A stretch of 27,967 nucleotides of DNA from an uncultured archaeon (GTDB taxonomy: Archaea > Altiarchaeota > Altiarchaeia > IMC4 > SCGC-AAA252-I15), in NCBI GenBank assembly GCA_902384455.1, contig CABMCB010000063.1, positions 1-27,967 of the forward strand, written 5' to 3'. Below, piece after piece: positions 1 through 20,294 of the stretch. The number at the start of each line of letters is the position of its first letter. Position 1 is the stretch's first letter. The notes beneath the pieces were generated by a model. That model searched no databases. It was not told the DNA's origin and saw only the letters and a program-made list of their open reading frames with translations. A program made the position numbers and the translations under genes.

Positions 1-643
1 AACCAAAATAAGCTTCATCAACGAAATAGGCAACATCTGCAAGAAACTGAACGTAGACACATACGACGTAGCCAAAGGAGTAGGACTAGACCACAGAATC
101 GGCCAACACTTCCTCGCAGCAGGACCCGGATTCGGCGGAAGCTGCTTCCCAAAAGACGTCAAAGCACTCGTACGCAAAGCCCGCTCAATAAGCTACGACC
201 CTCAAATCCTCAACGCAGTACTATCCGTCAACGCAACACAACCCCACAAAGTGCTGGAATCAGCCGAGAAACGATGGGGGCCAATGAAAGGGGCTAAAGT
301 CGCCTTGCTGGGTCTTGCCTTCAAGGAAGACACGGACGACGTGCGAGAAAGCCCCGCCATCACAATAGCTGAAGACTTCTTTAAAGCTCAGGCGAAAGTC
401 ACCGCTTATGACAAAAAAGCGGTTGAAAACGCCAAAAAAATATTGGGCGAAAAAATCTCGTACGCGACATCAGTCGACGAAGCACTCAAAGACGCCGACT
501 TAGCCGTCGTCGCCACAGGATGGAAGCAATTCGCAACGCTTAACGTCCACGTAATGAAGAAAAAAAGGGTGCTGGACACACGCCACGTCGTGAAGAAGAA
601 TCTACTGCCCAAGGACACCGAATACGAAGGGCTGCTATGGTGA
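1..643 (+). CDS. ugd: UDP-glucose 6-dehydrogenase (5'-truncated by window edge)
   Basis: Frame is open from base 2: TKISFINEIGNIC...GLDHRIG...GPGFGGSCFPKD (catalytic Cys motif), then GLAFKEDTDDVRESP. The ORF track start at 251 is internal. Confidence 0.95.
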   Translation, partial: TKISFINEIGNICKKLNVDTYDVAKGVGLDHRIGQHFLAAGPGFGGSCFPKDVKALVRKARSISYDPQILNAVLSVNATQPHKVLESAEKRWGPMKGAKVALLGLAFKEDTDDVRESPAITIAEDFFKAQAKVTAYDKKAVENAKKILGEKISYATSVDEALKDADLAVVATGWKQFATLNVHVMKKKRVLDTRHVVKKNLLPKDTEYEGLLW

Positions 644-1506
644 AAAAAATGAAAGCAGTAATTCCCGCCGCAGGACTAGGAACAAGATTCCTACCCGCCA
701 CAAAATCACAGCCAAAAGAAATGCTGCCGCTCGTGGACAAACCAGCAATACACTACGTCGTAGAAGAAGCAGTCGCATCAGGAATAGACGACATAATCAT
801 AGTCACAGGCCGCGGGAAACGCGCCATAGAAGACTACTTCGACCATTCGGTGGAGCTTGAGATGGCGCTTGAGAAATCCGGCAAAACCAAGCTGCGCGAG
901 GAGATGGAGGCCATAAGCGAGATGGCGTCCATACATTTCATACGCCAGAAGCATCCGCTGGGTCTTGGGCATGCGGTATTGACTGCGGAAAAGCACGTGG
1001 GCGACGAACCATTCGCAGTCCTTCTGGGAGACGACATAATATACGGCGAAAAGCCCGCCACACTGCAGCTAATCGAACGCCACCGCAAATACGAAGGAGC
1101 ACCTGTCATCGCCGTGGAAGAAGTGCCTCGGTCGATGATATCCAGCTACGGAATAATAAAAGGGAAAAAGCAGCCGGACGGCGCCTACATCATAGAAGAC
1201 TTGGTGGAAAAACCCAAGCCGGAAGACGCCCCAAGCAACCTAGGAATCACAGGCCGATACGTATTCACCCCCGACATATTTGACGCCCTCAAGAAGACCA
1301 AGCAAGGATTCGGCGGCGAAATACAGCTCACCGACGGAATGAACATCCTGCGGAAAAAAAGAAAAATGTACGCGTTCACATACGCCGGCATAAGATACGA
1401 CCTAGGAAGCAAACTAGACTACCTGCGCGCAACAGTAGAATTCGGACTAAGAAACCAAGAAATAGGCGAAAAATTCCGCGCATACCTAAAGAACGTCAAA
1501 CCATGA
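637..1506 (+). CDS. galU: UTP--glucose-1-phosphate uridylyltransferase
   Basis: [37 protein letters not shown] and EIQLTD motifs. An alternative start is the ATG at 649. Confidence 0.95.
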
Positions 1507-2444
1507 ACATAATAGTCACCGGAGGAGCCGGATTCCTCGGAAGCCACATATGCGAAAGACTACTCACAGAAGGCCACGACGTAGTATGCATGGACAACTA
1601 CCTAACCGGCAAAGACCAAAACATAAAACACCTCTGCCCCAACCCAAAATTTACGGCCGTAAAAACAGACGTCTCAAAACACATAGAATACGAAGGCGAC
1701 GTAGACTTCATACTACACTTCGCAAGCCCCGCCTCACCCAAAGACTACCTCAAATACCCAATACAAACACTCAAAGTAGGAGCACTAGGAACACACAACA
1801 CACTCGGCCTCGCCAAAGCCAAAAACGCAGGATTCCTTCTTGCGTCCACAAGCGAAGTATATGGAGACCCCTTAGTTCACCCGCAGCCGGAAACATACTG
1901 GGGAAACGTAAACCCCATAGGGCCTAGAGGAGTCTACGACGAAGCAAAACGCTACGCTGAAGCCATGACTATGGCGTACCACAGGGCGCACAACGTGGAC
2001 ACACGCATAGTCCGCATATTCAACACATACGGGCCCAGAATGGGCGTAAGCGACGGCAGAGTAGTGCCGGCTTTCCTGTGCCAAGCCCTAAGGAACAAGC
2101 CTCTGACGGTATACGGCGACGGCAAACAGACGCGCAGCTTCTGCTACGTAAGCGACCTGGTCGACGGCATAGTCCGCCTTATGAAAAGCAGCGAACACGA
2201 GCCTGTCAACATAGGCAACCCGCGGGAGATGACGGTCCTACAGTTCGCGCAAGCAATAAAGAAGGCGGTCGGAGCCGACGTCCCAATAATCCACGAACCC
2301 CTCCCAATAGACGACCCTAAGGTGCGCCAGCCGGACATAACCAAAGCCCGCCGCATCCTAAAGTGGGAGCCTAAAGTGACGCTTGAAGAAGGACTGGAAA
2401 AAACAATCCCCTACTTCAAAGAGGTACTTGCATGCGAATGCTAG
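1503..2444 (+). CDS. uxs: UDP-glucuronate decarboxylase (UDP-xylose synthase), extended SDR
   Basis: [56 protein letters not shown] and [10 protein letters not shown] are characteristic UXS motifs. Confidence 0.9.
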
Positions 2445-3355
2445 TCACAGGCGGCGCAGGATTCATAGGAAGCCACATAGTCGACAGACTACTTATGGAA
2501 AAACACGACGTCGCCGTCGCAGACAACCTCTCGTCAGGAACGCGAGGAAACGTCCCATTCGGAGTGGAATTCTACGAAGTAGACCTCACAAGCCCAGGCC
2601 TAACCGAAGCCATAACAGAATTCAAACCCGACGTAGTATTCCACGAAGCCGCACAAATCAACGTCCGCAAATCCATAGAAAACCCAACAACCGACGCCAA
2701 AACAAACATAATCGGCTCCATAAACCTACTCGAAGCCTGCCGGAAAAACAACGTGAAAAAAATAATCTACGCCTCATCAGGAGGCGCAGTATACGGCGAA
2801 CCACAAAAACTACCCGTACCAGAAGACCACCCCATAAAACCCCTATCACAATACGGAGCAAGCAAACACGCAGTAGAACACTACCTAGAAATATACCGCC
2901 AAAACTACGACCTCAACTACACAATACTACGATACAGCAACGTGTACGGCCCCCGGCAAAACCCCAACGGAGAAGCAGGAGTAATAGCGATATTCGCCAA
3001 AGCATTCCTCAACGGCAGCCAACCGGTGATTTTCGGCGACGGAAACCAAACCCGCGACTTCATCTACGCCGCAGACGTCGCGCAAGCAAACCTACTTGCA
3101 GCCCAAAAGAAGACGCCGGAAAAAACATTCAACGTAGGCTCAGGAACAGAAATATCAATCAACAAAATAACCGACCTAATATCCAAAGCAACCGACGCAA
3201 AAACAAAGCCAAAATACGGCCCAGAAGTGCCAGGCGAAGTACGACACACATACTTGGACATATCGCGCGCCAAAAAAGAGCTCGGCTGGCAACCCAAAAA
3301 GAAAATAGAAGACGGAATCAAAGAAACAGTCGAATGGATTAAGAACGGAGACTAA
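2432..3355 (+). CDS. galE: NAD-dependent UDP-sugar 4-epimerase (UDP-glucose 4-epimerase-like)
   Basis: [35 protein letters not shown] and [19 protein letters not shown]. The exact substrate cannot be determined from sequence. Confidence 0.75.
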
Positions 3356-3643
3356 CCCTTACTTATCGTCCTGCCTTCCAAGCCCTTCTCCAAAGCCAAA
3401 GACGCCGCAACAACAACCAAAACCACCCCTAAAACCAAAGAAAAGGAAAAAGGGACGCGAAGAAGGAAATTCACATAAAAAACAGCAACAGGAACAACCG
3501 CAAGCGACAAAGCAAAAGACAAAACAACCCTCTCAACCAAACCCACTCCAGACGAAGAAAAAAAAGCACGGAAAACCGCATAACCCGGAACAAAAAACAC
3601 AACCAACCCCCCCAACAACCGCCCGCAACAAATCAAACATCAT
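3352..3643 (-). pseudogene. Small DUF1616-like membrane protein with a frameshift (one extra base) in a G7 tract (sequencing error or slippage)
   Basis: The ATG at 3643/3640 follows an SD-like GGGGGTGG and reads MMFDLLRAVVGG. Removing one G of the 7-G run (C7 at 3607-3613 on +) joins it to LVVFFVPGYAVFRAFF...GLVERVVLSFALSLAVVP, the DUF1616-type pattern. Confidence 0.6.
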
Positions 3644-3667
3644 CAACACACCACCCCCACAGTAAGG

Positions 3668-3697
3668 TCACACACTATCACACACTATACAATACTA
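3668..3697. repeat. 10-bp tandem repeat (TCACACACTA x2 plus degenerate TACAATACTA) in a divergent intergenic region
   Basis: Read directly; ACTAT recurs at 3674, 3684 and 3694. Confidence 0.7.
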
Positions 3698-3705
3698 TAA
3701 TCCAC

Positions 3706-3716
3706 CCCCTTTAATA
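3706..3716 (+). promoter_or_regulatory. Putative TATA box of the rpe-led operon
   Basis: CCCCTTTAATA lies about 40-50 nt before rpe. The same CCCCTTTAA 9-mer precedes the radical SAM gene. Confidence 0.45.
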
Positions 3717-3756
3717 CCGCCAACCAAAGCAAATACTAAACACAAAAAAACAAAGG

Positions 3757-4419
3757 GTGGAACAAGTGATAAAGATAGCGGCAAGCATACTCTCAGCAGA
3801 CTTCACAAACATGGGAGACGCCGTAAAACAAGCCCAAAAAGGAGGCGCAAACCTAATACACTTCGACGTCATGGACGGCCACTTTGTCCCAAACATAACA
3901 TTCGGAAACGCAATGATAGCCGCCCTCAAACCCCAACTAACAAAACCAGCAGACGTACACCTAATGATAACAAACCCCGAAGAACAAGCACAAAAATACA
4001 TAGACTCGGGAGCCAACTACCTAACATTCCACATAGAAGCCACAAAAAAACCCGAAAAACTAATACAAAAAATCAAAAAACAAGGAGTAAAAACAGGCAT
4101 CTCAATCAAACCAAAAACACCACTAAAAACAATAACACCCCTACTACCAAACCTAGACCTCGTACTAATAATGAGCGTAGAACCAGGATTCGGCGGCCAA
4201 AAATTCATCCCCACCTCACTCGAAAAAATAAAAACACTCAGAAAAACAATAGACACAAAAGGATACAAAACCCTAATCTCAGTCGACGGAGGAATAAACG
4301 CCCAAACAATCCACTCCGTAAACCAAGCAGGAGCAGACATAGCAGTAGCCGGATCCGCAATATTCCAAACAAAAAACATCCCCCAAGCAATAAAAAAACT
4401 CAAGGAGGCAGCCCGATGA
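3757..4419 (+). CDS. rpe: Ribulose-phosphate 3-epimerase
   Basis: ASILSADF, HFDVMDGHFVPNITFG, DVHLM, MSVEPGFGGQKF, VDGGIN and VAGSAIF. The start may be the GTG at 3766, after GGGTGG. Confidence 0.96.
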   Translation: MEQVIKIAASILSADFTNMGDAVKQAQKGGANLIHFDVMDGHFVPNITFGNAMIAALKPQLTKPADVHLMITNPEEQAQKYIDSGANYLTFHIEATKKPEKLIQKIKKQGVKTGISIKPKTPLKTITPLLPNLDLVLIMSVEPGFGGQKFIPTSLEKIKTLRKTIDTKGYKTLISVDGGINAQTIHSVNQAGADIAVAGSAIFQTKNIPQAIKKLKEAAR

Positions 4420-5249
4420 AATCAACGGCAGTTCAGAAATACGATTTCATAGCTCTCAAAGAGAAAGCCAAGCAGATACGCCGCCACATTCTAGAGATGA
4501 CGTACGCTGCAAGCAGCGGGCATCCCGGCGGAAGCATGAGCATAGCCGACATAGTCACTGTTCTATACTTTGCCGTAATGCGCTACGACCCTCAGAACCC
4601 CGCGTGGGAAGAACGCGACCGCTTTGTACTATCCAAAGGGCACGGGGCGCCGGCGTTGTACTCGGCACTTGCGGAAGCAGGATTCTTCCCGACCAAAGAA
4701 CTCAAAACGCTAAGAAAATGCGGCACACGCCTAGAAGGCCACCCTTCACACCAAAAAGTCCCAGGTGTTGAAGCAAGCACCGGAAGCTTAGGCCAAGGAT
4801 TCAGCATGAGCGTGGGAATGGCGCTTGCGGCAAAAATAGACAAAAAGGAAAATAGGGTCTACGCTTTGCTTGGGGACGGCGAATGCAACGAAGGCATAGT
4901 ATGGGAAGCCGCAATGGCCGCAAACCACTACAAACTCGACAACCTCACTGCAATCGTGGACCGAAACCACTATCAAATCGACGGCGTAACAGAAGACGTA
5001 ATGAGCCTCGAACCATTCGCGGACAAATGGCGCGGATTCGGATGGAACACAGTCGTAATCGACGGTCATAATCTCCATGAAATATTCGATGCGTTGGAGC
5101 GCGCGGAGTCCACTAAAGGAAAGCCGACGGTCATAATAGCCAACACTCTCAAAGGCAAAGGAGTCAGCTTCATGGAAGGCAAAAACGACTACCACGGGAA
5201 GCCCCTACCCAAGGAACTGCTCGATAAGGCGCTGGAGGAACTGGCATAA
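4416..5249 (+). CDS. tktA: Transketolase, N-terminal (ThDP-binding) subunit
   Basis: SGHPGGSMS, RDRFVLSKGH, LEGHP, STGSLGQG, GDGECNEG and KGKG. Confidence 0.95.
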   Translation: MKSTAVQKYDFIALKEKAKQIRRHILEMTYAASSGHPGGSMSIADIVTVLYFAVMRYDPQNPAWEERDRFVLSKGHGAPALYSALAEAGFFPTKELKTLRKCGTRLEGHPSHQKVPGVEASTGSLGQGFSMSVGMALAAKIDKKENRVYALLGDGECNEGIVWEAAMAANHYKLDNLTAIVDRNHYQIDGVTEDVMSLEPFADKWRGFGWNTVVIDGHNLHEIFDALERAESTKGKPTVIIANTLKGKGVSFMEGKNDYHGKPLPKELLDKALEELA

Positions 5250-6202
5250 TGACGGAAGAACTTACATTCGACGAATACGCAAGCACGCGCAACGCCTACG
5301 GGGAAACGCTCGTAGCGCTCGGCTCAGAACGCCAAGACATAATAGTCTTGGACGCAGACCTATCCTCCAGCACACAAACCAAGCTATTCTCCACAAGATT
5401 CCCAGAACGCTTCTTCAACGTAGGCGTCGCAGAACAAAACCTAATAGACATCTCCGCCGGAATAGCATTATCCGGAAAAACAGTCTTCGCAAGCACATTC
5501 GCCATGTTCGGCACAGGCCGCGGATGGGAGATGATTAGAAACACGCTCGCATACGACCAGCTAAACGTCAAACTAGTGTTCACTCACAGCGGCCTGCTTG
5601 TGGGCCAAGACGGAAGCTGCCATCAAAGCCTCGAAGACATAGCTATAATGCGGGCGATACCCGGCCTCACAGTGATGATACCTGCGGACGCAAACGAAAC
5701 CAAGGCGATGATACGCTACGCGGCAGAAACGCCGGGCCCGTTCTACATACGCCTTTCGCGAGAGAAAACGCCGGTCCTATTCAAGGAATACCACCATAAG
5801 CCGTCGCAGCCCTTCGTGATAGAAGACGGAGAAGACGTCACAATATGCGCTACAGGCGTGATGGTCGCAATGGCGCTTCAGGCAAGATGCCGGCTATCAA
5901 AAGAAGGCGTATCCGCCCGCGTCATAAACATGAACCAAATCAAGCCGCTTGATGCCGACTTCATAGTCAAAAACGCCAAAGAAACAGGCGCAATAGTGAC
6001 CGCAGAAGAACACAGCATAATAGGCGGAATAGGCAGCGCAATAGCGGAAACACTCGCCGAACGCCACCCAACTCCTATGCGCCGCATAGGCACACAAGAC
6101 AAATTCGGAGAATCCGGCCTAGGATTCGAACTACTTGAAAAATACGGCTTAACCGCGTCAGCCATAGCAAACGCCGCAAAAGAACTGGTGAAGCAAAAAT
6201 GA
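5249..6202 (+). CDS. tktB: Transketolase, C-terminal (pyrimidine-binding) subunit
   Basis: DADLSSST, NVGVAEQN, GQDGSCHQSLED, YIRLSR and TAEEHSIIGGIGS. It overlaps the N-subunit gene at TAATG. Confidence 0.95.
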   Translation: MTEELTFDEYASTRNAYGETLVALGSERQDIIVLDADLSSSTQTKLFSTRFPERFFNVGVAEQNLIDISAGIALSGKTVFASTFAMFGTGRGWEMIRNTLAYDQLNVKLVFTHSGLLVGQDGSCHQSLEDIAIMRAIPGLTVMIPADANETKAMIRYAAETPGPFYIRLSREKTPVLFKEYHHKPSQPFVIEDGEDVTICATGVMVAMALQARCRLSKEGVSARVINMNQIKPLDADFIVKNAKETGAIVTAEEHSIIGGIGSAIAETLAERHPTPMRRIGTQDKFGESGLGFELLEKYGLTASAIANAAKELVKQK

Positions 6203-7206
6203 TCATCATACTGCGAAACGACGCAACCAAAAATCAGATAAACGACGTTCTCGCGAAAATCAAAGCTCTACGCCTTAAGCACCAACTCTCAAAAGGAGTC
6301 GAAAAGACCATAATAGGCGTCATAGGAGACGAACGCATCATCGCAGGCCAACCGTTCGAAAACATGCCTGGCGTGGACAGCGTCATACCAATACTTAAGC
6401 CCTACAAGATGGCAAGCAGGGAATTCCACCCCCAAAACTCCGTCGTCAAAATAGGCGACGCCAAATTCGGCAAAGCATTCACCGTAATAGCCGGACCATG
6501 CGCAGTAGAAAACGAAAAACAAGTCATGGAAACAGCCCGCGCAGTCAAGGCATCAGGAGCGCAAGTACTTCGCGGAGGAGCATACAAACCAAGAACAAGC
6601 CCATACGCATTTCAAGGACTCGGTGAAAAAGGCCTGAAAATACTCGCTAAAGCCCGCGACGAAACGGGGCTGCCGTTTGTCACAGAAGTCGTTGATACGC
6701 GCCACGTAAAAACGGCGGCGCAGTACGCAGACGCCCTCCAAATAGGCACCCGCAACATGCAGAACTTCGAGCTACTTAAGGAAGTAGGCAAAACAAACCT
6801 TCCCGTAGTCCTAAAAAGAGGAATGTGGGCGACCGTGGAAGAATGGCTTATGAGCGCGGAATACGTCATGTCCGAAGGCAACCCCAACATAATACTTTGC
6901 GAACGCGGAATACGAACATTCGAAAAGGCGACGCGCGCAACACTCGACGTATCCGCAATACCAGTCGCAAAATCACTCTCCCACCTGCCAGTAATAGTAG
7001 ACCCAAGCCACGCAGGAGGAAAACGCAGCCTAGTCTCACCGCTTGCGCTCGCAGGGGTAGCGGCAGGAGCAGACGGACTAATAGTGGAAGTCCACAACTG
7101 CCCAGACAAAGCCCTATGCGACGGACCACAAGCATTGCTTCCAAGCGACTTCGCGGAAATGATGAATAAGGCAAAAAAAATAGCGGCCATAGTAGGGCAC
7201 ACTTAA
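6199..7206 (+). CDS. aroF: 3-deoxy-7-phosphoheptulonate (DAHP) synthase, type I-beta, with an N-terminal ACT-like regulatory domain
   Basis: IAGPCAVE, GGAYKPRTSPYAFQG (DAHPS-type KPRTS), QIGTRNMQNF, LKRG, CERGIRTFE, VDPSH and EVH..P..A.CDG. About 65 N-terminal residues resemble the Thermotoga-type regulatory domain. Confidence 0.95.
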   Translation: MIIILRNDATKNQINDVLAKIKALRLKHQLSKGVEKTIIGVIGDERIIAGQPFENMPGVDSVIPILKPYKMASREFHPQNSVVKIGDAKFGKAFTVIAGPCAVENEKQVMETARAVKASGAQVLRGGAYKPRTSPYAFQGLGEKGLKILAKARDETGLPFVTEVVDTRHVKTAAQYADALQIGTRNMQNFELLKEVGKTNLPVVLKRGMWATVEEWLMSAEYVMSEGNPNIILCERGIRTFEKATRATLDVSAIPVAKSLSHLPVIVDPSHAGGKRSLVSPLALAGVAAGADGLIVEVHNCPDKALCDGPQALLPSDFAEMMNKAKKIAAIVGHT

Positions 7207-8285
7207 TGAACACAGTCACAGTCCGCCTCGGAAAACGCTCATACCCCATTTACATAGGCGAAGGCACACTCAACCAACTGGGCGAATTTGCCGCCAAAAA
7301 AATTTCGCCAGGCCGCTGCGCAATAATAACATCCGCACCCATCGCACGCCACCACCTGAAACCCGCAGTAAAAAGCCTCACATCCGCAGGATTTACGCCC
7401 ATAATAATCGAAATCCCCGACGGAGAACAACACAAAAACCTCGCAACATACTTAGCCGTAATAGACGAACTAGTCAAAGCCAAACTCGACAGAACATCCA
7501 CATTATTCGCCTTAGGCGGCGGCGTAGTCGGAGACATCACCGGATTCGCAGCAGCAACATACCTGCGCGGAGTACCCTACGTACAAATACCCACAACACT
7601 ACTGGCCCAAGTAGACTCAAGCGTCGGCGGAAAAACAGGCGTAGACCATCCGCAAGCAAAAAACCTAATCGGCGCATTCAACCAACCAACACTCGTAATA
7701 ACAGACACCAAAACACTCACAACACTCCCCGAAAGAGAATACACATCAGGACTCGCAGAAATAATAAAATACGGCATCATAGCAAGCCCCAAACTATTCA
7801 AACACCTCGAAACACACAAAAAACAAATAACACAAAGAAACCCAAAAACACTCGAACACATCATAACCGAAAGCTGCAAAATAAAAGCACACATAGTAGC
7901 AGCAGACGAAAAAGACGCCGGAATAAGACAAACACTAAACTTCGGCCACACAATAGGCCACGCAATAGAAGCGGCATCCGGCTACAAAAACATACGCCAC
8001 GGAGAAGCAGTAGCCCTCGGAATGATAGCTGCAACCAAAATATCAGAAGACGCTGGACTAACCCAAACGGAGGCAGAGCGCATAAAAAAACTCATAGCAA
8101 ACCTAAACCTTCCCACAAAAACAAACGTCAACATAACCAAAACATTAACCGCAATAAGCCACGACAAAAAAAGGTCAGACGGAAAAACACGCTTCATAGC
8201 CGCCCAAAAAATAGGTTCAACCTGCATAATCGAAAACGTACCCAAAAACACAATACAAAAAGCGCTAAAATCAATCGTTAAATAA
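7206..8285 (+). CDS. aroB: 3-dehydroquinate synthase
   Basis: [50 protein letters not shown]...[14 protein letters not shown] and HGEAV. Confidence 0.93.
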
Positions 8286-8316
8286 AACAAAAAACAAAAA
8301 AAAAGACACGGAAAAA

Positions 8317-8973
8317 ATGGAATTCTTCCTCGACACCGCGGACACAAACGAAATAAAAGAAGCACTATCCTGGGGCATACTCGACGGAGTCACAACAAAC
8401 CCATCGCTTGTCGCCAAAACAGGCAAAACATTCGAAGACGTCGCCCAAGAAATAATAAAACTAGTGAAAGGCCCAGTAAGCATAGAAGCAGTAGCAACAG
8501 ACACATCAAACATGCTAGAAGAAGCCCGCGAATACGCAACATGGGGAGAAAACGTAGTCATAAAAGTCCCCATGACGCCAGAAGGAATGAAAACAGTTGT
8601 CACACTCACAAAAGAACAAATACCCACCAACGTAACACTCGTATTCTCAGCAAACCAAGCATTAATCGCCGCAAAAGCAGGAGCAACATACGTCAGCCCA
8701 TTCATAGGACGCCTAGACGACGCAGGACAAAACGGCCTACAAATACTCGAAGACATAGTCACAATATACGACAACTACGACTTCACAACCAAAGTACTTG
8801 CAGCAAGCCTGCGTCACCCAATACACGTGCTGGAAGCCGCAAAAATAGGCTCCGACGTAGCCACAATACCCATAAACGTAATGAAACAACTCTTCAATCA
8901 CCCCCTAACAGACGCAGGACTCAAACGATTCATGGAAGACTGGAAAAAAGTCCCCACAAAAAAGAAAAAATGA
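8317..8973 (+). CDS. tal: Transaldolase (small MipB/TalC-type)
   Basis: [20 protein letters not shown] (Glu), VIKVP, NVTLVFS and YVSPFIGR (Phe). The Glu/Phe pair indicates transaldolase rather than F6P aldolase. Confidence 0.92.
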
Positions 8974-9542
8974 GCGAAAAAGAAATCAAAGCCCAAATAG
9001 CAGAAAGCATACGCACAAAACAAGCAGTAGCAGACAAACTAACACCCCAAATAAAAAAAGCCGCCAACCTAATAACAAACACCCTCAAAAAAGGAAACAA
9101 AATACTCCTAATAGGAAACGGCGGAAGCGCAGCAGACGCACAACACATAGCAGCAGAATTCGTCGGACGCTACCTAAAAGAAAGAACCGCGTGGCCCGCC
9201 ATAAGCCTAGCAACAGACACAAGCGCACTAACCGCCCTAACAAACGACTACGGCGGACAAACAATATTCTCCCGACAAATAGAAGCACTCGGCCAAAAAG
9301 GAGACCTGCTCATAGCACTATCCACAAGCGGAAGAAGCCCAAACATACTAAAAGCATGCGAAACGGCCCGCAAAAAAAAGATGAAAATCATAGGCCTAAC
9401 CGGCGCCAAAGGCACCAAACTAAAAAACAAAAGCGACATAACCCTCATGGTACCCTCCACCGAAACACCCCGAATACAAGAAAGCCACATAACAATAGGC
9501 CACATACTAGCAAGCCTAGTTGAAAACGAACTCACAAAATGA
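8970..9542 (+). CDS. gmhA: Sedoheptulose-7-phosphate isomerase (phosphoheptose isomerase)
   Basis: [19 protein letters not shown]...FSRQ, STSGRS.N and RIQE.H...GH. The true start is the ATG at 8970 (ATGA overlap with tal), not 8541. Confidence 0.93.
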
Positions 9543-10504
9543 AAAAAGCACTAATAACAGGCGTCACAGGACAAGACGGAAGCTACTTGGCAGAACTACT
9601 ACTATCCAAAAAATACGAAGTATACGGCTTAGTCAGAAGACTATCCACCCCCAACTTCTGGCGCATAGAACACATCCTAGACCAAATAGAACTCATCGAC
9701 GGAGACCTAGCAGACGCCGCCTCACTAAACAACGCAGTAAAAGCGGCAGAACCCGATGAAATATACAACCTAGCAGCCCAATCATTTGTGGCCACAAGCT
9801 GGAGACAACCGCTACTCACAAGCGACGTCACAGGACTTGGCGCCACAAGAATGCTGGAAGCCGCAAAAAACTATACCCCCAACGCCCGCTTCTATCAGGC
9901 GTCCACATCGGAAATGTACGGGAACTCCTCGATTGACGGTAAACAAACGGAGAAAACGCCGTTTCACCCCCGTAGCCCATACGCAATAGCTAAACTGTAC
10001 GCCTACTGGATGAGCGTCAACTACCGCGAAAGCCATAAAATGTTCATCTGCAACGGAATACTCTTCAACCACGAGTCGCCAAGGCGAGGAATAGAATTCG
10101 TGACGCGGAAAATAACGGACGGAGTAGCAAAAATAAAACTCGGACTAGCAGACGACATAACCCTCGGAAACCTTGATGCGCGTCGGGACTGGGGTTACGC
10201 AGGAGACTACGTCAAAGCGATGTGGCTGATGCTGCAGCAGAAGGAACCGGACGACTACGTAGTCGCAACAGGAATATCACACTCAGTCAGAGACTTCGTA
10301 ACAGAAGCATTCAAAGTCGCCGGCATAGAAAAATGGGAAAAATACGTCAAACAAGACCCACGGTACATGCGCCCCACAGACGTCCAATACTTAGAAGGAA
10401 AACCCGACAAAGCAACACTAAAACTCGGCTGGAAACCAACAGTCCAATTCCAAGAACTAGTCAAAATGATGGTCGAAGCCGACATAGAAAGGCATAAAAA
10501 GTGA
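9539..10504 (+). CDS. gmd: GDP-mannose 4,6-dehydratase
   Basis: [59 protein letters not shown] and RDWGYA.DYV. Confidence 0.93.
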
Positions 10505-11415
10505 GAGCCCTAATAACCGGCTCGGAAGGATTCGTCGGCCCCTACCTCTCAGAACTTCTTTTGAAAAACAACTTTGAAGTCTACGGAACATACCTTACGA
10601 CCCCAACAACCATCGTAGACATACATCAAATACAAACGGACATAACCCAAAAAGAAGACGCAAAAAACGCAGTCAAAGAATCCAAACCCGACTTCGTATT
10701 CCACCTTGCCGGATTCAGTTCAGTCGGAGAGAGCTGGAAAAAACCAGAACTATGCCGCCAAATAAACGTGGAAGGAACAAGAAACCTACTTGACGCAATC
10801 AAAGAATCAAACACAAACCCGCGCATACTAATCATATCCTCATCCGAAGTATACGGCATACCCAAAGAAAACCCCATACCCGAAACACACACCCTAAACC
10901 CCATAAGCCCCTACGCAAAATCTCGAGTAGAACAAGAGCAACTAGCAACAAAATACGATCTTGACCTAGTAATATCCCGCAGCTTCAACCACACCGGCCC
11001 ACGCCAACCCAAAGGGTTCGTAGTCCCAGACATAGCAAGCCAAATAGCCTCAATAGAATCAGGAAAAACACCACCAACAATCGAAGTGGGAAACACCGAC
11101 GCAATAAGAGACTTCACCGACGTACGCGACATAGTAAAAGCCTACCTAACAGCACTACAAAAAGCGCCCAAAGGCACATACAACATAGCCTCCGGAAAAG
11201 GAACCCAAATCAAAACAATAATAGAAACCCTTATATCCTTCTCAAACACAAACATAAACCTCCACAAAAACCCCGAAAAAACACGGCCACTAGACACCCC
11301 AATCCGCATAGGAGACCCCACAAAAATCCAACAAACAACCAACTGGAAACCCACAACACCACTCAAAAAAACACTAAAAGACACACTCAAATACTGGAGA
11401 CAAAAACAGCAATGA
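10501..11415 (+). CDS. rmd: GDP-4-keto-6-deoxy-sugar reductase (Rmd-like)
   Basis: [29 protein letters not shown]....QIA, VGN....[12 protein letters not shown], and position directly after gmd. The catalytic motif reads YAKSR. Confidence 0.75.
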
Positions 11416-12356
11416 CAATCCTAGTAACCGGAGCAGCCGGATTCATAGGAAGCCACACAACAGAAAAACTGCTAAATGTGGGCCATGAAATTGTGGGAAT
11501 AGACGACCTAAACGACTACTACGACCCAAAACAAAAACAAGAAAACCTGAACATACTCTCAAAAAACAAGAAATTCACTTTCATAAAAGCAGACATAAGA
11601 GACGCCAAAACAACAGAAGAAACATTCAAAAAACACAAGCCAACCGCAGTAATACACCTTGCCGCCCGCGCAGGAGTACGCCCAAGTTTACTAGACCCCG
11701 CACTATACATGGACGTGAACGTCAAAGGAACAGTCCACCTCCTGGAAGCAGCCCGAAAAAACGACGTAAAAACATTCATATTCGGAAGCAGCAGCAGCGT
11801 CTACGGAGCAAACACAAAAACCCCATTCAGCGAAAAAGACCCAGTAGAACAGCCTATTTCACCATACGCCGCAACCAAACGCGCAGGAGAACTACTTACC
11901 AAAACATACCACAACCTATACAACCTAAACACAACAAGCCTACGTTTCTTCACCGTATACGGACCAAGAGGACGGCCGGACATGGCAGTATATACGTTCA
12001 CAAAAAACCTTCTTGAAAAAAAACCAATCACCGTGTACGGCGACGGAACGTCAAGCCGCGACTACACCTACGTTTCGGACGTAGTCGACGGGATAATCTC
12101 GGCTTTAAATAAAAGCTATCCCGACGAGATATTCAACCTGGGGGAATCCCAGACTGTAACGCTAAACAAGCTGATTCAGACTATAGAAAAAGAGACAAAC
12201 AAAAAGGCAATAATAGAAAGAAAGCCGCTTCAGCCCGGCGACGTAACAACAACCTACGCAGACTTAACTCACAGCAAACAAAAACTAGGCTATAACCCCC
12301 AAGTGAAAATAGAGGAAGGAATACATAAATTCGTGCAATGGTACAACACAAAATGA
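11412..12356 (+). CDS. UDP-glucuronate 4-epimerase-like SDR
   Basis: GAAGFIGSH, LNDYYD, HLAARAGVRPS, SSSSVYG, YAATK, LRFFTVYGPRGRPDMA and QPGDV..TYAD. Confidence 0.85.
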   Translation: MTILVTGAAGFIGSHTTEKLLNVGHEIVGIDDLNDYYDPKQKQENLNILSKNKKFTFIKADIRDAKTTEETFKKHKPTAVIHLAARAGVRPSLLDPALYMDVNVKGTVHLLEAARKNDVKTFIFGSSSSVYGANTKTPFSEKDPVEQPISPYAATKRAGELLTKTYHNLYNLNTTSLRFFTVYGPRGRPDMAVYTFTKNLLEKKPITVYGDGTSSRDYTYVSDVVDGIISALNKSYPDEIFNLGESQTVTLNKLIQTIEKETNKKAIIERKPLQPGDVTTTYADLTHSKQKLGYNPQVKIEEGIHKFVQWYNTK

Positions 12357-13282
12357 AAAAACTCTCCATCATAATACCGGTCTACAACGAAGAACAAAAC
12401 ATCCCCCTACTGCATGCGCGAATAAAACAAGCATTAGACACCCTAAACAAACCCCATGAAGTAATTTATGTTGACGACGGAAGCAAAGACGGAACATACA
12501 ACGAACTTATGAAACTGTTCGGAGTGAAAATAATCAAATTCCGCAAAAACTTCGGGCAAACAGCCGCATTAAATGCAGGAATCACTCACTCTGCAGGAGA
12601 CGTAATAGTCACATTAGACGGCGACCTGCAAAACGACCCAGCCGACATACCTAAACTCATAGCCAAACTCGAAGAAGGATACGACGTAGTTTCCGGATGG
12701 AGGAAACACCGTAAAGACCCCCTTCAAAAACGAATATTTAGCAAATTCGCCAACCGCATCCGCAACCTACTGATTAAAGAACAAGTCCACGACAGCGGAT
12801 GCAGCCTCAAAGCCTACAGAAAAGAATGCTTTGACGACATAGACCTATACGGTGAAATGCACCGCTACATACCAAGTTTACTCGCATGGAAAGGATTCAA
12901 AATAGGAGAAGTAGAAGTCACACACCACCCCCGAATCAAAGGGAAAACAAAATACGGACTCTACCGCCTACCTAAAGGATTCCTAGACCTGATCAACATA
13001 TGGTTCTGGAGAAAATACAGCACACGCCCACTACACATATTCGGAGGCCTCGGAATCATCTCAATACTCATGGGAACCGCACTCGGAATGTACCTGTTAT
13101 TCGTAAAAACAGTTTTCCATGAATCCCTCACAAGCAAAATCACGCCGCTAATAGCCGTACTACTCGTAATTGTAGGAGTCCAATTCTTCATTTCCGGACT
13201 TTTGGCAGACATTTCCGCCAAAAACTACTACCTTCACGAACAAAAAAATCCCTACTCAATCAAAGAAATAATAGAAAAGTGA
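12353..13282 (+). CDS. GT2 glycosyltransferase, polyprenol-phosphate sugar synthase type (ArnC/DPM1-like) with two C-terminal TM helices
   Basis: IIIPVYNEE, VDDGSKDGT, NFGQTAA, DGDLQNDP, DSGCSLKAYR, HRYIP and two hydrophobic C-terminal segments. The start at 12353 follows from the ATGA overlap. Confidence 0.9.
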   Translation: MKKLSIIIPVYNEEQNIPLLHARIKQALDTLNKPHEVIYVDDGSKDGTYNELMKLFGVKIIKFRKNFGQTAALNAGITHSAGDVIVTLDGDLQNDPADIPKLIAKLEEGYDVVSGWRKHRKDPLQKRIFSKFANRIRNLLIKEQVHDSGCSLKAYRKECFDDIDLYGEMHRYIPSLLAWKGFKIGEVEVTHHPRIKGKTKYGLYRLPKGFLDLINIWFWRKYSTRPLHIFGGLGIISILMGTALGMYLLFVKTVFHESLTSKITPLIAVLLVIVGVQFFISGLLADISAKNYYLHEQKNPYSIKEIIEK

Positions 13283-14403
13283 ACGTATTATTCTTAAATT
13301 ACGAGTATCCCCCGATTGGCGGCGGAGCGGGAAACGCCACTAAATACCTGCTTAACGAATATTCGAAAATAAAAGAGTTACGCGTCGATTTAATCACGTC
13401 TGCGTTAGGCGACAGAATCGAGGAAGAAAAAATCTCCGAAAATATATCACTTATTCAGTTGCCTATACGCAAGAAAGACATCCATTTTTGGACTCAACGC
13501 GAAACAATTTCCTACGCTTTAGCCGCCCAGAAATACATAAAAAAATCAGGCGTAAAATACGAAGTCTGCCATGCATTTTCAGGGGTTCCTTGCGGATTCA
13601 TAGCTCAGGAGCAAAGGAAAAAGCAGCCGTACATAGTTTCTCTGCGCGGAAGCGACGTACCCGGATTCAACAACAGATTCGCACTTCAATACGTTTTTTT
13701 GAAGCCCCTAATACGTAGAATGTGGAAGCACGCGTCAGCAGTCGTCGCAAATAGCGAGGGGCTTAAGGAACTTGCTCTTAAAACGAATCCGAACCAGAAA
13801 ATAGACGTAATCCCCAACGGCATAGACACGGCAGAATTCAAGCCCGGCAAAAAGAAGAACGATACATTCCGAATAATTACAGTTTCCCGCCTGATAGAAC
13901 GCAAAGGAATACACCACTTAATTGATGCGGCACCCAAAGTCCTAAAAGAAAACCCTGATACCGAGTTCGTAATAATCGGCGAAGGCGACCTCGAACAAAA
14001 CCTAAAGGAGCAAGTAAAAATGCTCGGAATAGAAAAAAACATTAAATTTATGGGATACATGCCCCACGAAAAATTACCTGAAATATACGCAAACTCAAGT
14101 GTTTTCGTACTCCCCAGCCAAAACGAAGGAATGAGCAACACAATAATGGAGGCGATGGCCGCAGGGCTTCCGGTAATAACGACCGAAACCGGAGGCAGCA
14201 AAGAATTAATTAAAGACGGAATAAACGGGAAAATAATCAAACAAAACAATTCACAAGAAATAGCCGATGCAATAATCTCTTACGCGCAAGACAAAAACAA
14301 AATAATGTCGCACGGACACAGTTCACGGGAAAAAGCCCTAAACATGAGCTGGGAAAATGTGGCAAAAAATTACGCGGAAAAATACGCGGAAATAATCAGA
14401 TGA
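13279..14403 (+). CDS. GT4 glycosyltransferase
   Basis: YEYPPIGGG, VIPNGID, SRL..RKG and PS..EG.S....EAMAAGLPV (EX7E motif). Confidence 0.92.
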   Translation: MNVLFLNYEYPPIGGGAGNATKYLLNEYSKIKELRVDLITSALGDRIEEEKISENISLIQLPIRKKDIHFWTQRETISYALAAQKYIKKSGVKYEVCHAFSGVPCGFIAQEQRKKQPYIVSLRGSDVPGFNNRFALQYVFLKPLIRRMWKHASAVVANSEGLKELALKTNPNQKIDVIPNGIDTAEFKPGKKKNDTFRIITVSRLIERKGIHHLIDAAPKVLKENPDTEFVIIGEGDLEQNLKEQVKMLGIEKNIKFMGYMPHEKLPEIYANSSVFVLPSQNEGMSNTIMEAMAAGLPVITTETGGSKELIKDGINGKIIKQNNSQEIADAIISYAQDKNKIMSHGHSSREKALNMSWENVAKNYAEKYAEIIR

Positions 14404-15755
14404 ACTGGAGAAAACCCGTACTTCTGGGATTAATGCAGGCGAACGGCATGAATGTGAAAGGTAACCTTGAGTTCATCCATAAACTTGAAAAACAAACCCC
14501 CGAGGAAATACAGAAATTCCAGCAAGAACAACTTAAAAAAATACTGCAACACGCCGCAGAAAAAGTACCATATTACTCTAAAATATTAACTAAATCAGAA
14601 GTTTATGCGGACGGAAAAATCAACCTAAAAAATTTCCAAAAAATCCCCCCCTTAAACAAGGAAATAATACGAACCCAAAAAACAAACCTCCACTCAACAG
14701 ACAAAGACGCACGCCAATGGTACAAAAATAGCTCTGGTGGCTCAACAGGAGAACCCGTAGAATTAATACAAGACCGTAACTACAAAGCGTGGAGCTTTGC
14801 AGGCAAAATGTACTTCAATCTTCTCGCAGGAAAAGACGTTGGAGAAAGAGAAGTTCGGATATGGGGATCAGAACGAGACATTATATCCGGCAGTCAAACA
14901 AAAAGAGCGCGCTTTGAAAACTGGCTGTACAATCGGACAATTCTAAACAGCTTTAAAATGACGCCTCAAAAAATGGTGAATTACGCAGAAATAATTAATT
15001 CAGAAAAGCCCTTATTGATAGAATCTTACGTGCAACCAATGTATCAGTTCGCGATTTTTCTGCAAGAAAATAATCTACAAATTCGTTCTCCTAAAGGAAT
15101 AATAACTTCCGCAGGAACATTAACGCCTTCAATGAAGCAGGAAATAAAGAAAACATTCAAATGCAGTGTACACAATAAATACGGGAGCAGGGAAGTAGGT
15201 GACATGGCATGCTCCTGCGAAAAAGACGAAGGATTACATTTAAATCCGGCAACACACGTCATAGAAATATTAGACGATAAAATGCAACCTGTAAAGTCCG
15301 GAGAAATAGGCTCAGTCTACGTCACCACCCTACAGAATTATTCGATGCCTTTAATCCGATATAAAATAGGCGACTTAGCAGTTTCAGCCAGGAAAACAAT
15401 ATGTTCTTGCGGAAGAAACCTACCGTTGATTCAACACGTTGAAGGCAGGGAAATGAGCGTCTTCAAGAAAAAAGACGGAACAATAATTCCAGCGGAATTC
15501 TTCATCCACTTCATAGGCGTAGTACACAACAAAGGTTTCATAGAAAAATTCCAGGTAATACAAGAAGACTACGAAGCAATAACAATAAAGGCAGTAATAA
15601 AAAACAAAAAAGAATTCGAGAAAAACAAAGACGCAATAGAAAAATCCATTAGAAAAACAATGGGCGAAAAATGCGAAATAAAATGGGAACAAGTCAACGA
15701 AATACCCCCACTCAAAAGCGGAAAATACCTATACACGATAAGTAAAATAAAATAA
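14400..15755 (+). CDS. Phenylacetate-CoA ligase family / CapK-like adenylate-forming enzyme
   Basis: VPYY, SSGGSTGEP (P-loop-like), YGSREVG, YSMPLIRYKIGD, C.CGR, EGR and SGK. Confidence 0.88.
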   Translation: MNWRKPVLLGLMQANGMNVKGNLEFIHKLEKQTPEEIQKFQQEQLKKILQHAAEKVPYYSKILTKSEVYADGKINLKNFQKIPPLNKEIIRTQKTNLHSTDKDARQWYKNSSGGSTGEPVELIQDRNYKAWSFAGKMYFNLLAGKDVGEREVRIWGSERDIISGSQTKRARFENWLYNRTILNSFKMTPQKMVNYAEIINSEKPLLIESYVQPMYQFAIFLQENNLQIRSPKGIITSAGTLTPSMKQEIKKTFKCSVHNKYGSREVGDMACSCEKDEGLHLNPATHVIEILDDKMQPVKSGEIGSVYVTTLQNYSMPLIRYKIGDLAVSARKTICSCGRNLPLIQHVEGREMSVFKKKDGTIIPAEFFIHFIGVVHNKGFIEKFQVIQEDYEAITIKAVIKNKKEFEKNKDAIEKSIRKTMGEKCEIKWEQVNEIPPLKSGKYLYTISKIK

Positions 15756-15758
15756 TTA

Positions 15759-16664
15759 ATGAAAAATTCAGTTACCTTCGCAATTGTTGGAGATTGTGCA
15801 GGATGGAATCTGCCCGAAAAAATAGATCCGTTATCTAATGTACGGGAGACACTCCAAACAGCAGATGTTTTTTTATTCAATCTTGAAGGGCCAGTAATAC
15901 ACCCTCTTAACAAAATCAAGATAACCGGATTCCCGACCCTCAAAATAATGCGTTATGCACTAAAAAAACTGGGTAAACTCCAACCTCCCGTATACAGTAT
16001 TCCTGATTTTCTATCCTACATGAAACCATGTAGTATCAACATTGCGTTATTAGCCAATAATCATATTTTAGATGCCGGAGAGAACGGATTATCAGAAACT
16101 ATTAAACACCTAAAAGATAACAAAATACTATATACTGGTGCCGGAGAAAACGAAATAATTGCTCGTCAACCAATAATAATTACCTCAAATGGTTTAACTA
16201 TCGGAATAATTAATCTTAATCTTATTGGGTGGACAATCTTCGGAAAATACTTTAATATCTTTGGCGCAAAAAAAAGAAAACCCGGATCAAGTTTTTATAC
16301 GCCAAATGAACTTGAAAAAGAAATTAAAATTTTAGATGGAAAAGTAGATTCAATTATTGTTTCAATCCATATGGGAAAAGCATTCAAAAAAGAAATTCCA
16401 AAAAAACATATGGAATACTTTTCGATACTTTACTCAAATAAAATAGATCTAATCGTTGGACATCATAGTCATGTATTCGGCGAATTGGTCCATATTAATG
16501 GAAGAAACGTAATAACTTCATTGGGTGATTTTATTTTCAACCACGGATCAAAACACCCCCAACCAGAAACAAAAGTAGCATTCCTAACGCTTGAAAAAAA
16601 CAAAACGCCAATACTAACATTGAAAAGTGGAACATTAGAAAACGGAATACCCCTCTTAAAATAA
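15759..16664 (+). CDS. CapA/PGA_cap family metallophosphoesterase
   Basis: GD, NLEGP, ANNHILD.G, H.G, GHHSHV and SLGDFIF. No N-terminal signal or TM segment is visible. Confidence 0.82.
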   Translation: MKNSVTFAIVGDCAGWNLPEKIDPLSNVRETLQTADVFLFNLEGPVIHPLNKIKITGFPTLKIMRYALKKLGKLQPPVYSIPDFLSYMKPCSINIALLANNHILDAGENGLSETIKHLKDNKILYTGAGENEIIARQPIIITSNGLTIGIINLNLIGWTIFGKYFNIFGAKKRKPGSSFYTPNELEKEIKILDGKVDSIIVSIHMGKAFKKEIPKKHMEYFSILYSNKIDLIVGHHSHVFGELVHINGRNVITSLGDFIFNHGSKHPQPETKVAFLTLEKNKTPILTLKSGTLENGIPLLK

Positions 16665-16693
16665 AATTACTATAACAATATCCAAATTACCTT

Positions 16694-17290
16694 ATGAATA
16701 AAGAAACATCAACTTTCCTGCTTCAGCGGTTCAGACCTAAATTACTTTCATCCATCTACCTTAGTGCAAAATATAACTGCGTAGTTGATCCATCAGCAAC
16801 AATCTTCTTTCCCTCTAAAGTAAAACTTGGAAAATCCACAGTTATACGAAAAGCAACATTAATTGCTAAGACCTCTAAATCTAAAGGAATAGTAATCGGA
16901 GAAAATTCACTTATTGATGATTATGTCATATTACATTCACGCGGCGATTCGATTACCTTGGGTGACCATGTCCACATTAACCCTTTTTGTGTAATTGACG
17001 GTCACGGAAATGTTAAAATAGGTAACAATGTTGGGTTAGCATCTCATGTCCGACTTGTAACTAACCACGTAATACCCCCGTCAAACGAACTAATACGAAA
17101 TCAACCCATCACTAAAAAGGGCATAAAAATTGGGGATGATGTATGGGTAGGTACTGGAGTCACAATAGTAGATGGTGTTTCCATCGGTGATGGATGCATA
17201 ATCGGTGCTGGTTCAGTTGTTCTAAATGATACGCCCGCCTACACAATCTCTGCAGGAGTTCCTAGCAAAATTATCCGTAAACGACAATGA
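16694..17290 (+). CDS. Hexapeptide-repeat (LbH) O-acyltransferase
   Basis: Repeated I-G-x-N/D hexapeptides and IGDDVWVG.GV.I.DGVSIGDGCIIGAGSVV...GVP. Confidence 0.9.
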   Translation: MNKETSTFLLQRFRPKLLSSIYLSAKYNCVVDPSATIFFPSKVKLGKSTVIRKATLIAKTSKSKGIVIGENSLIDDYVILHSRGDSITLGDHVHINPFCVIDGHGNVKIGNNVGLASHVRLVTNHVIPPSNELIRNQPITKKGIKIGDDVWVGTGVTIVDGVSIGDGCIIGAGSVVLNDTPAYTISAGVPSKIIRKRQ

Positions 17291-20214: not shown

Positions 20215-20239
20215 CTGGCAGTTAGTATACTCTCTGTGG

Positions 20240-20247
20240 AATATAAA
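20240..20247 (-). promoter_or_regulatory. Putative TATA box (TTTATATT) for the GT-C gene
   Basis: Lies about 25 nt upstream of ATG 20214, the spacing of a leaderless archaeal transcript. Confidence 0.55.
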
Positions 20248-20294
20248 GGTGCTTGTCTTAAACAAGTTATGTTTGTCGTGTTGGGGGTTACAGA

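Follow-up and report, generated by a model that had tools for sequence, protein, structure and literature searches.

The 27,967-bp contig C63 of an uncultured archaeon, analysed here as a whole and referred to as the window, carries a row of seven genes, rpe-tktN-tktC-aroF-aroB-tal-gmhA, which runs on through gmd and an rmd-like gene into genes of glycan assembly. As the likely, though by no means certain, explanation we favour a fusion, specific to the lineage, in which three older modules were joined in one unit, probably co-transcribed and running on into the glycan genes: a group of nucleotide-sugar genes followed by rpe-tktN-tktC, a bacterial-type aroF-aroB pair, and a tal-gmhA pair. The exact seven-gene row, with its aroF-aroB pair and its probable housekeeping set of pentose-phosphate pathway (PPP) genes, is new here and unique among the genomes searched. 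A first-pass annotation of this DNA had proposed a dedicated PPP feeding two seven-carbon (C7) branches of envelope synthesis. [quoted passage not shown]

Gene identities were established by Pfam and NCBIfam profile scans and by the ranking of matches in the PDB, and copy number by tblastn searches of all window proteins against the genome (G000), a 2.41-Mb draft in 103 contigs that is 92% complete. Synteny and distribution were followed through 40 relatives, 20 from the same family and 20 from other families of the same order, giving 41 genomes together with G000. Two wider sets were also used, the best 80 aroF loci among species-representative genomes and 80 metagenome loci with the closest Tal homologues (53–65% identity), in each case with up to 10 kb of DNA fetched on each side. 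The complete row had no second example in the 40 relatives, the 80 aroF loci or the 80 Tal loci; the best metagenome Tal match was only 65% identical, and hence no second case of the full row came from metagenome contigs of the same genus. The first-pass annotation had itself counted a linkage confined to this genome, and these being the only copies, among the findings that would speak against its proposal; in the genomes searched the full seven-gene linkage had no second case, and no further copies turned up in G000. What does recur across the relatives is the tal-gmhA link and the gene order of the first module.

On the plus strand, 20 genes lie between positions 2 and 18231 (open reading frame (ORF) list, Pfam and NCBIfam), several of them encoding short-chain dehydrogenases/reductases (SDR) or glycosyltransferases (GT):

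2–643, plus strand: ugd, partial (Pfam, NCBIfam)
637–1506, plus strand: galU (Pfam, NCBIfam)
1503–2444, plus strand: SDR1 (Pfam, NCBIfam)
2432–3355, plus strand: SDR2 (Pfam, NCBIfam)
3356–3756, no strand: spacer of 401 bp with an antisense ORF and a TATA-like motif inside (sequence)
3757–4419, plus strand: rpe, ribulose-phosphate 3-epimerase (TIGR01163, 285.8 bits against a cut-off of 212.6)
4416–5249, plus strand: tktN, N-terminal half of a split transketolase (PF00456; NF004559, 369.7 bits)
5249–6202, plus strand: tktC, C-terminal half of the split transketolase (PF02779 and PF02780; NF004559, 287.6 bits)
6199–7206, plus strand: aroF, type I-beta DAHP synthase (NF006421, 512 against 335 bits; TIGR01361, 406 against 268 bits; PF18152)
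7206–8285, plus strand: aroB, 3-dehydroquinate synthase (DHQS; TIGR01357, 387.8 against 305 bits)
8286–8316, no strand: A-rich spacer of 31 bp between aroB and tal, with neither a T-run nor a TATA-like motif (sequence)
8317–8973, plus strand: tal, short-type transaldolase (TIGR00875, 313.5 against 246 bits)
8970–9542, plus strand: gmhA, S7P isomerase (TIGR00441, 206.2 bits, cut-off 209.45)
9539–10504, plus strand: gmd (TIGR01472, 425.2 against 415 bits; PDB 1rpn, 400 bits)
10501–11415, plus strand: rmd-like SDR gene (PDB 2pk3, 254.5 bits)
11412–18231, plus strand: SDR3, ArnC-like GT2, GT4, PaaK/F390-like ligase, PGA_cap, hexapeptide acetyltransferase and flippase-like LPG_synthase_TM (Pfam, NCBIfam)

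The seven genes, followed by gmd and the rmd-like gene, are indeed present on the plus strand at the positions first assigned to them, although the range 3757–11415 given for the block holds nine genes rather than the seven named. From rpe onward the successive junctions are ATGA, TAATG, ATGA, TAATG, the 31-bp gap, ATGA, ATGA and GTGA, again as described, so that all are overlaps of one or four bases except for the single gap; the tal/gmhA overlap is the ATGA at 8970–8973. The tight packing goes on to 18231, with 16 genes from rpe onward and no gap larger than 31 bp. A run of seven specific genes, of which six are single copy in a 2.4-Mb genome, is far beyond chance, and misassembly is an unlikely source of in-frame ATGA and TAATG start/stop overlaps. 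No T-run of at least five occurs on the plus strand from 1 to 13484 and, because the overlaps continue and there is no such run before 13485, the row is probably co-transcribed through into the glycan-assembly genes. Upstream, the likely rpe start is the GTG at 3766, preceded by GGGTGG at 3755–3760, and the TATA-like TTTAATA at 3710–3716, some 45 nt ahead of the rpe start, is a candidate promoter element. The 13 genes across 1–13500 have a third-position T content of 0.00–0.10 and low third-position G; from the ligase gene (around 14400) onward, third-position T rises to 0.14–0.34 and G+C falls to 0.31–0.39.

The first module appears to be inherited, the pentose-phosphate genes already following nucleotide-sugar genes within the family. 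The order ugd-galU-SDR-SDR-rpe-tktN-tktC was the same in all four relatives from which the region was fetched (G012, G016, G013 and G004), and rpe lay directly 5′ of tktN in each of the seven relatives with an rpe match of at least 42% identity. The linkage of the PPP to glycan genes, at the level of rpe-tkt behind four nucleotide-sugar genes, is therefore not peculiar to this genome. The distance from SDR2 to the rpe match was 7–10 bp in the relatives, compared with 401 bp in the window; this shorter gap indicates that the spacer of the window, with its DUF1616-like ORF, is an insertion into an older operon. The ORF itself (94 aa, minus strand, 3352–3636) matches DUF1616 at 31.6 bits, exactly the cut-off, and is probably a remnant of what split that operon. 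As to the enzyme encoded by the split genes, all three transketolase domains are present (PF00456 on tktN, PF02779 and PF02780 on tktC), and each half falls below the whole-protein cut-off of NF004559 (369.7 and 287.6 against 488 bits), the gene being split.

The tal-gmhA module likewise appears to be inherited, and its recurrence supports the S7P part of the earlier proposal. At the ten orthologous Tal loci in relatives (56–63% identity), gmhA lies directly 3′ of tal in six (G003, G012, G013, G016, G004 and G018). As for the other four, the contig ends within 340 bp of tal in G014 and G032, gmhA is about 3.3 kb upstream in the same row in G033, and a more distant gmhA is found 8 kb away in G006. 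In G012, G013 and G016 the pair is divergent from GT2, SDR and methyltransferase genes and has an AAA+ ATPase-like gene downstream, with gins51 also downstream in G012 and G016. Over the 41 genomes, at thresholds of 1e-3 and 1e-10, Tal and GmhA occurred together in 18, Tal alone in three, GmhA alone in none and neither in 20, counts that are descriptive and not a test; in the second family, the three of 14 genomes with Tal are the same three that have GmhA. None of the 80 background metagenome Tal loci had a match to gmhA, aroF or aroB in the fetched DNA, and tktC was upstream of tal in 15 of them.

Genes for heptose activation were met beside GmhA in three of the relatives. The row in G012 is tal-gmhA-gmhB, with GmhB at 179.6 bits against 178. 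In G033, from another family, one overlapping row (C68, 4921–12106) contains a GT9 heptosyltransferase-like gene, gmhA, gmhB, an HldE kinase domain, tktN, tktC, tal, a second HldE kinase domain and an HldE adenylyltransferase domain; the two kinase domains (353 bits against 345 for the first, 395 bits for the second) are a paralogous pair that flanks tktN-tktC-tal. In G024 the minus strand of C3 (5238–8887) reads hddC-gmhB-hddA-gmhA-tal and then SDR genes; its divergent Tal reaches no more than 122 bits against any solved structure, and no transketolase was found in this 97%-complete genome by protein and Pfam searches. Two other families thus place tal, with or without tkt, inside operons for nucleoside diphosphate (NDP)-heptose and, judged from these arrangements and the protein matches, the coupling of S7P to heptose appears conserved and meaningful in the class. 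A further design was seen in several genera of the window's own family, in which Tal is of a longer type, its open frames of about 272 aa being matched in two pieces, and an rpe-like gene with 32–35% identity comes after it (G002:C13, G001:C39 and G007:C149).

The Tal and GmhA proteins of the window match solved enzymes. Tal ranks with transaldolases of known structure at 221–277 bits (1vpx, 277), and fructose 6-phosphate (F6P) aldolase, at about 125 bits, was ruled out as its identity. The best PDB match of GmhA is the phosphoheptose isomerase 2xbl (184 bits), and the His-x3-Glu and Gln...His positions, which we take to be active-site residues, are identical in the alignment. Elsewhere in G000, a second gmhA, 30% identical, ends a row on C18 that comprises a glycosyltransferase, an SDR, a fused nucleotidyltransferase/GmhB-type phosphatase and an HddA-like kinase. 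Another HddA-like kinase, which scores 260 bits on the HddA model, lies on C11, in the region 5896–11114, between two GT4 genes, an FkbM methyltransferase and an MraY-like transferase; orthologues of this kinase occur in most genomes of the family.

The second module differs from the other two in its distribution. Only two of the 41 genomes, G000 and G016, had strong matches to aroF and to aroB (55% and 38% identity, respectively, in G016), the remaining aroB matches in relatives being weak, with open frames of 329–373 aa. In G016 the pair is on another contig than tkt and tal, between an FG-GAP protein gene and two genes of the isocitrate/isopropylmalate dehydrogenase family. Bacteria account for all 80 of the closest aroF loci (Omnitrophota, FCPU426, Planctomycetota, Actinomycetota and others; 53–62% identity); within the fetched DNA none has a match to rpe, tkt, tal or gmhA, and three have an aroB match. 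A gene tree had been suggested as a check for joint transfer, and in that of aroF (82 sequences) both archaeal copies fall inside bacterial diversity, in a polytomy with long branches. Acquisition of aroF-aroB by transfer forms a part of the three-module reading, one we hold to be fairly likely.

Both proteins appear to be ordinary members of the shikimate pathway. AroF has the N-terminal ferredoxin-like domain (PF18152), and the top 13 PDB matches of AroB are all DHQS, at 164–299 bits; a role for AroB as S7P cyclase was ruled out, the cyclases 4p53, 2d2x and 5tpr scoring 103–119 bits (4p53 119, 5tpr 103). DHQS-II is present in 37 of the 41 genomes, including G000, which marks the route through 2-amino-3,7-dideoxy-d-threo-hept-6-ulosonate (ADH) as the norm of the lineage. 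In G000 the ADH synthase is on C18 (TIGR01949, 368 against 299 bits; L001:12043–12840, minus strand), about 950 bp from the second gmhA cluster, and DHQS-II is on C11 (435 bits; C11:42289–43308). By these profile matches, G000 holds both known entries to 3-dehydroquinate, ADH synthase with DHQS-II and DAHP synthase with DHQS; in open-access text we found no report of the two routes coexisting in one genome. Of the later genes, aroD and aroE lie on C14 and aroA and aroC on C77. With AroF and AroB scoring as bona fide DAHP synthase and DHQS, with bacterial closest relatives, an occurrence in two of 41 genomes and other shikimate genes on separate contigs, the DAHP half of the proposed pair of envelope branches finds no support, and aroF-aroB look like a bacterial-type shikimate entry.

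Whether the PPP genes serve the envelope in particular depends on what else the cell has for making pentoses. Single copies of rpe, tktN, tktC, aroF, aroB and tal were found by tblastn in the 92%-complete genome, so that a check for a second housekeeping set, advised in the first-pass annotation, returned none; the ribose-5-phosphate isomerase RpiA, named in the same advice, is present on C72 (PF06026, 177.9 bits; C72:43469–43957). The isomerase belonging to the ribulose monophosphate (RuMP) route, 6-phospho-3-hexuloisomerase (PHI), was not found in G000, so that this second way to pentoses looks incomplete; the best matches to the PHI model there are the two GmhA proteins (at best 34 bits), and PHI's partner HPS (3-hexulose-6-phosphate synthase) is fused to an RraA-like domain (NF005442, 517 bits; C76, L108:2581–3864). 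PHI was detected in seven of the 20 family relatives, leaving 13 with no match, compared with 18 of the 20 genomes from the order's other families, and TktN in 12 of the 15 genomes lacking PHI compared with seven of the 26 possessing it. Because there is no second copy of rpe, tkt or tal and PHI was not found, Rpe, Tkt and Tal with RpiA are probably the only pentose route in the window's subclade. If so, the wiring couples housekeeping sugar-phosphate metabolism to glycan synthesis and is no dedicated extra supply, contrary to what had been proposed. In the PHI-bearing G033, the tkt-tal genes within the ADP-heptose row do look dedicated.

Several points weigh against the three-module reading and the heptose function it includes. 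GmhA, at 206.2 bits, lies just below the TIGR00441 equivalog cut-off of 209.45, and the heptose kinase, phosphatase and nucleotidyltransferase that follow GmhA are absent from the window in the Pfam and NCBIfam scans. The complete heptose activation set on C18 carries its own gmhA, and the gmhA of the window could therefore be superfluous or act on a different sugar. The co-occurrence of Tal and GmhA overstates the signal, since related genomes are not independent of one another, and 'not found' for PHI rests on draft genomes that are 70–92% complete. The absence of T-runs, used above in favour of continuous transcription, is confounded by the extreme T-depletion of that strand. The aroF tree was built from only the best 80 loci, all bacterial, with no archaeal DAHP synthase as contrast, and it leaves undecided both the attachment point of the archaeal copies and whether G000 and G016 represent one acquisition or two. 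The codon-position make-up of aroF and aroB is that of their neighbours, with no contrast to indicate recent transfer, so any transfer was not recent.

Of the other ways to account for the row, a coincidental neighbourhood, in which a housekeeping PPP/aro operon happens to border a glycan operon and no functional meaning attaches to the gene order, would explain why the complete row recurs in none of the 40 relatives, 80 aroF loci and 80 Tal loci and why its genes are single copy; glycan islands are moreover prone to recombination, and the G+C content drops after 14.4 kb. We nevertheless consider it unlikely, since tal and gmhA overlap by ATGA and are adjacent in six other genomes of the family, rpe follows SDR genes in four of four relatives, and tal is linked with heptose genes through three different operon designs spread over three lineages; the 18 genomes with both Tal and GmhA against none with GmhA alone, and the lack of a gmhA match in the fetched DNA of all 80 background Tal loci, also sit badly with it. 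The dedicated supply originally proposed, with DAHP made via AroF/AroB and heptose via GmhA as its two C7 branches, now seems improbable. It draws on the single overlapping row that reaches the glycosyltransferases and on the relatedness of DAHP synthase to 3-deoxy-d-manno-octulosonate 8-phosphate (KDO8P) and NeuB-type sugar-acid synthases, visible as weak matches in the profile scans. However, rpe, tkt and tal have no second housekeeping copy, AroF and AroB score well above the cut-offs for shikimate enzymes, and in the ranking AroB falls among DHQS proteins, not sugar cyclases. In addition, aroF-aroB are missing from 39 of the 41 genomes, including those that keep the glycan linkage, and in G016 they stand beside isocitrate/isopropylmalate dehydrogenase-family genes and not glycan genes.

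Two further proposals concern the product of the tal-gmhA pair. The pair could act like LmbR and LmbN of lincomycin biosynthesis, adding a three-carbon unit to ribose 5-phosphate to give octulose 8-phosphate and then octose 8-phosphate, so that the activated sugar would be an eight-carbon (C8) one and not a heptose. Passages of PMC5854111 and PMC4351081 describe LmbR as a transaldolase that uses F6P or S7P as donor and ribose 5-phosphate as acceptor, and it is not obvious where S7P would come from in G024, whose hddC-gmhB-hddA-gmhA-tal row stands in a genome that gave no transketolase match. From this comparison the octose route would be a live alternative for G024, but it is less likely for the window, where we regard it as a poor prospect: transketolase is present and adjacent in G000, making S7P available, the Tal of the window is typical (277 bits to 1vpx) whereas that of G024 is divergent (122 bits), GmhA keeps the heptose-isomerase residues, and in G033 the partners of tkt-tal are a GT9 heptosyltransferase-like gene and a pathway of the ADP-heptose type. 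It is more doubtful still that the tal-linked GmhA replaces the missing PHI, which would make tal-gmhA a pair of central metabolism. The two isomerases share the SIS fold and act on sugar phosphates, GmhA is the genome's best match to the PHI model (34 bits), PHI was not found in G000 although an HPS-RraA-like fusion is there, and within the family the genera without PHI are those with a close GmhA orthologue. Against this, GmhA scores 206 bits on the gmhA model compared with those 34 bits, G032 and G033 hold a true PHI as well as the same type of GmhA, and what comes after the orthologue of GmhA is gmhB in G012 and gmhB with hldE in G033.

The genes immediately downstream of gmhA probably form a branch to GDP-d-rhamnose, as judged from the ranking of solved structures. 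The best match of Gmd is 1rpn (400 bits), and the heptose 4,6-dehydratase 7us5 is not among its PDB matches at E ≤ 1e-30. The rmd-like protein scores 254.5 bits to the GDP-6-deoxy-d-lyxo-4-hexulose reductase 2pk3, followed by 6x3b at 143.7 and the Campylobacter heptose dehydratase 7us5 at 128.5; no NCBIfam equivalog matched it above cut-off. A GDP-heptose 4,6-dehydratase/reductase pair leading to 6-deoxyheptose is the less likely reading, because 1rpn and 2pk3 rank above 7us5. A second gmd, followed by fcl, is found on C59 of G000. Further along, the PaaK/F390-like adenylating ligase, PGA_cap, acetyltransferase and flippase-like protein (14400–18231) hint at a glycan decorated with acyl groups or amino acids, and the strand opposite the glycan genes (18235–22441) encodes a 705-aa ORF without a Pfam family and a PMT_2 GT-C enzyme. 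Neighbours of archaeal character on the window are NucS, DUF1616 and a radical-SAM methanopterin-type methylase; in the syntenic relatives they are Gins51 and archease.

If the three modules do act as one unit, transcription would start behind the TTTAATA at 3710–3716 or read through from ugd. Rpe, Tkt and Tal, with RpiA, would interconvert F6P and glyceraldehyde 3-phosphate (GAP) with pentose phosphates, erythrose 4-phosphate (E4P) and S7P. AroF and AroB, whose genes sit beside those for the makers of their substrate E4P, may then combine E4P with phosphoenolpyruvate to yield dehydroquinate, alongside the route of ADH synthase and DHQS-II. The S7P from Tal would be converted by GmhA to d-glycero-d-manno-heptose 7-phosphate, which the kinases and the fused nucleotidyltransferase/phosphatase encoded on C18 and C11 could activate for a surface glycan, while Gmd and the Rmd-like enzyme would provide GDP-d-rhamnose. 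The ArnC-like GT2 and the flippase-like protein, together with the PMT_2 GT-C of the opposite strand, would fit a polyprenyl-phosphate-sugar route to an external acceptor. Co-transcription, the direction of flux, and heptose and rhamnose as end products are what we infer from this arrangement.

In many archaea ribose comes from the RuMP route, and aromatic amino acids are built through ADH synthase with no need for E4P, and why some of them keep tkt and tal is puzzling. The tie of these genes to heptose and nucleotide-sugar genes, here and in two further families, suggests that they supply S7P for surface glycans. A broader reading for the class, which we offer only tentatively, would be that Tkt and Tal are primarily glycan enzymes, travelling in cassettes for NDP-heptose (or, without transketolase, possibly NDP-octose) as a built-in source of S7P; that a subclade lost the RuMP isomerase, whereupon the genes were promoted to the sole pentose route while still in glycan operons; and that their output of E4P made room for the transferred bacterial DAHP route. 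If true, the non-oxidative PPP genes of archaea would gain a definite function, where their presence has been puzzling because these organisms require neither E4P nor the PPP to make ribose. The placement of a bacterial-type entry exactly between the makers of its own substrate would represent a transferred segment integrated into an existing operon. For annotation, gmhA beside tal and PPP genes within the glycan clusters of this lineage are not to be divided into separate housekeeping and glycan units. Heptose is reported in the N-glycan of Thermoplasma, in a passage of PMC12448462.

The arrangement had been thought undescribed, which is correct to the extent that we found no open-access text that places PPP genes such as tal or tkt within heptose or nucleotide-sugar operons of archaea, but a split transketolase next to aro genes is known. 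Two genes of the Thermococcus kodakarensis aro operon TK0271–TK0262 are, we presume, transketolase halves. A pathway figure legend in the article on that operon lists F6P, GAP, xylulose 5-phosphate and E4P (PMC6737238), and a passage of PMC3189178 describes the split transketolase TTX_1754/1753 of Thermoproteus tenax as clustered with aro genes. The window resembles both in having tktN-tktC beside DAHP synthase and DHQS, so that E4P is made next to its consumer. It differs from them in having no aro genes beyond the first two, which are bacterial in type and seldom found in a lineage that otherwise uses ADH synthase and DHQS-II, and in being embedded in glycan genes together with rpe, tal and gmhA.

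The octose pathway of the lincosamides offers a second parallel. In the portions of PMC5854111 and PMC4351081 concerned with lincomycin, LmbR and LmbN make octose 8-phosphate; LmbN serves as the C8 isomerase, LmbP as the kinase, LmbK as the phosphatase and LmbO as the guanylyltransferase. The likeness, which is one of gene arrangement and not of sequence comparison, is that of a transaldolase firmly tied to an isomerase of the GmhA type, which in turn supplies a kinase, a phosphatase and a nucleotidyltransferase. Unlike the archaeal row, however, the Lmb genes belong to a Streptomyces secondary-metabolite cluster with a C8 product, and the presence of transketolase in the window makes S7P and heptose the simpler reading.

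Further counterparts are the bacterial S-layer clusters for GDP-d-glycero-α-d-manno-heptose, of which that for the S-layer glycan of Aneurinibacillus thermoaerophilus presumably contains the GmhA, HddA, GmhB and HddC pathway together with Gmd and Rmd. As in such clusters, the gmhA of the window adjoins gmd and the gene for an Rmd-like reductase (closest solved structure 2pk3), and G000 has an HddA-like kinase and a fused nucleotidyltransferase/GmhB-type phosphatase. In contrast to them, the genes for kinase, phosphatase and transferase lie on contigs other than this one, the row belongs to an archaeon, and gmhA is translationally coupled to tal, 3′ of rpe, tkt, aroF and aroB.

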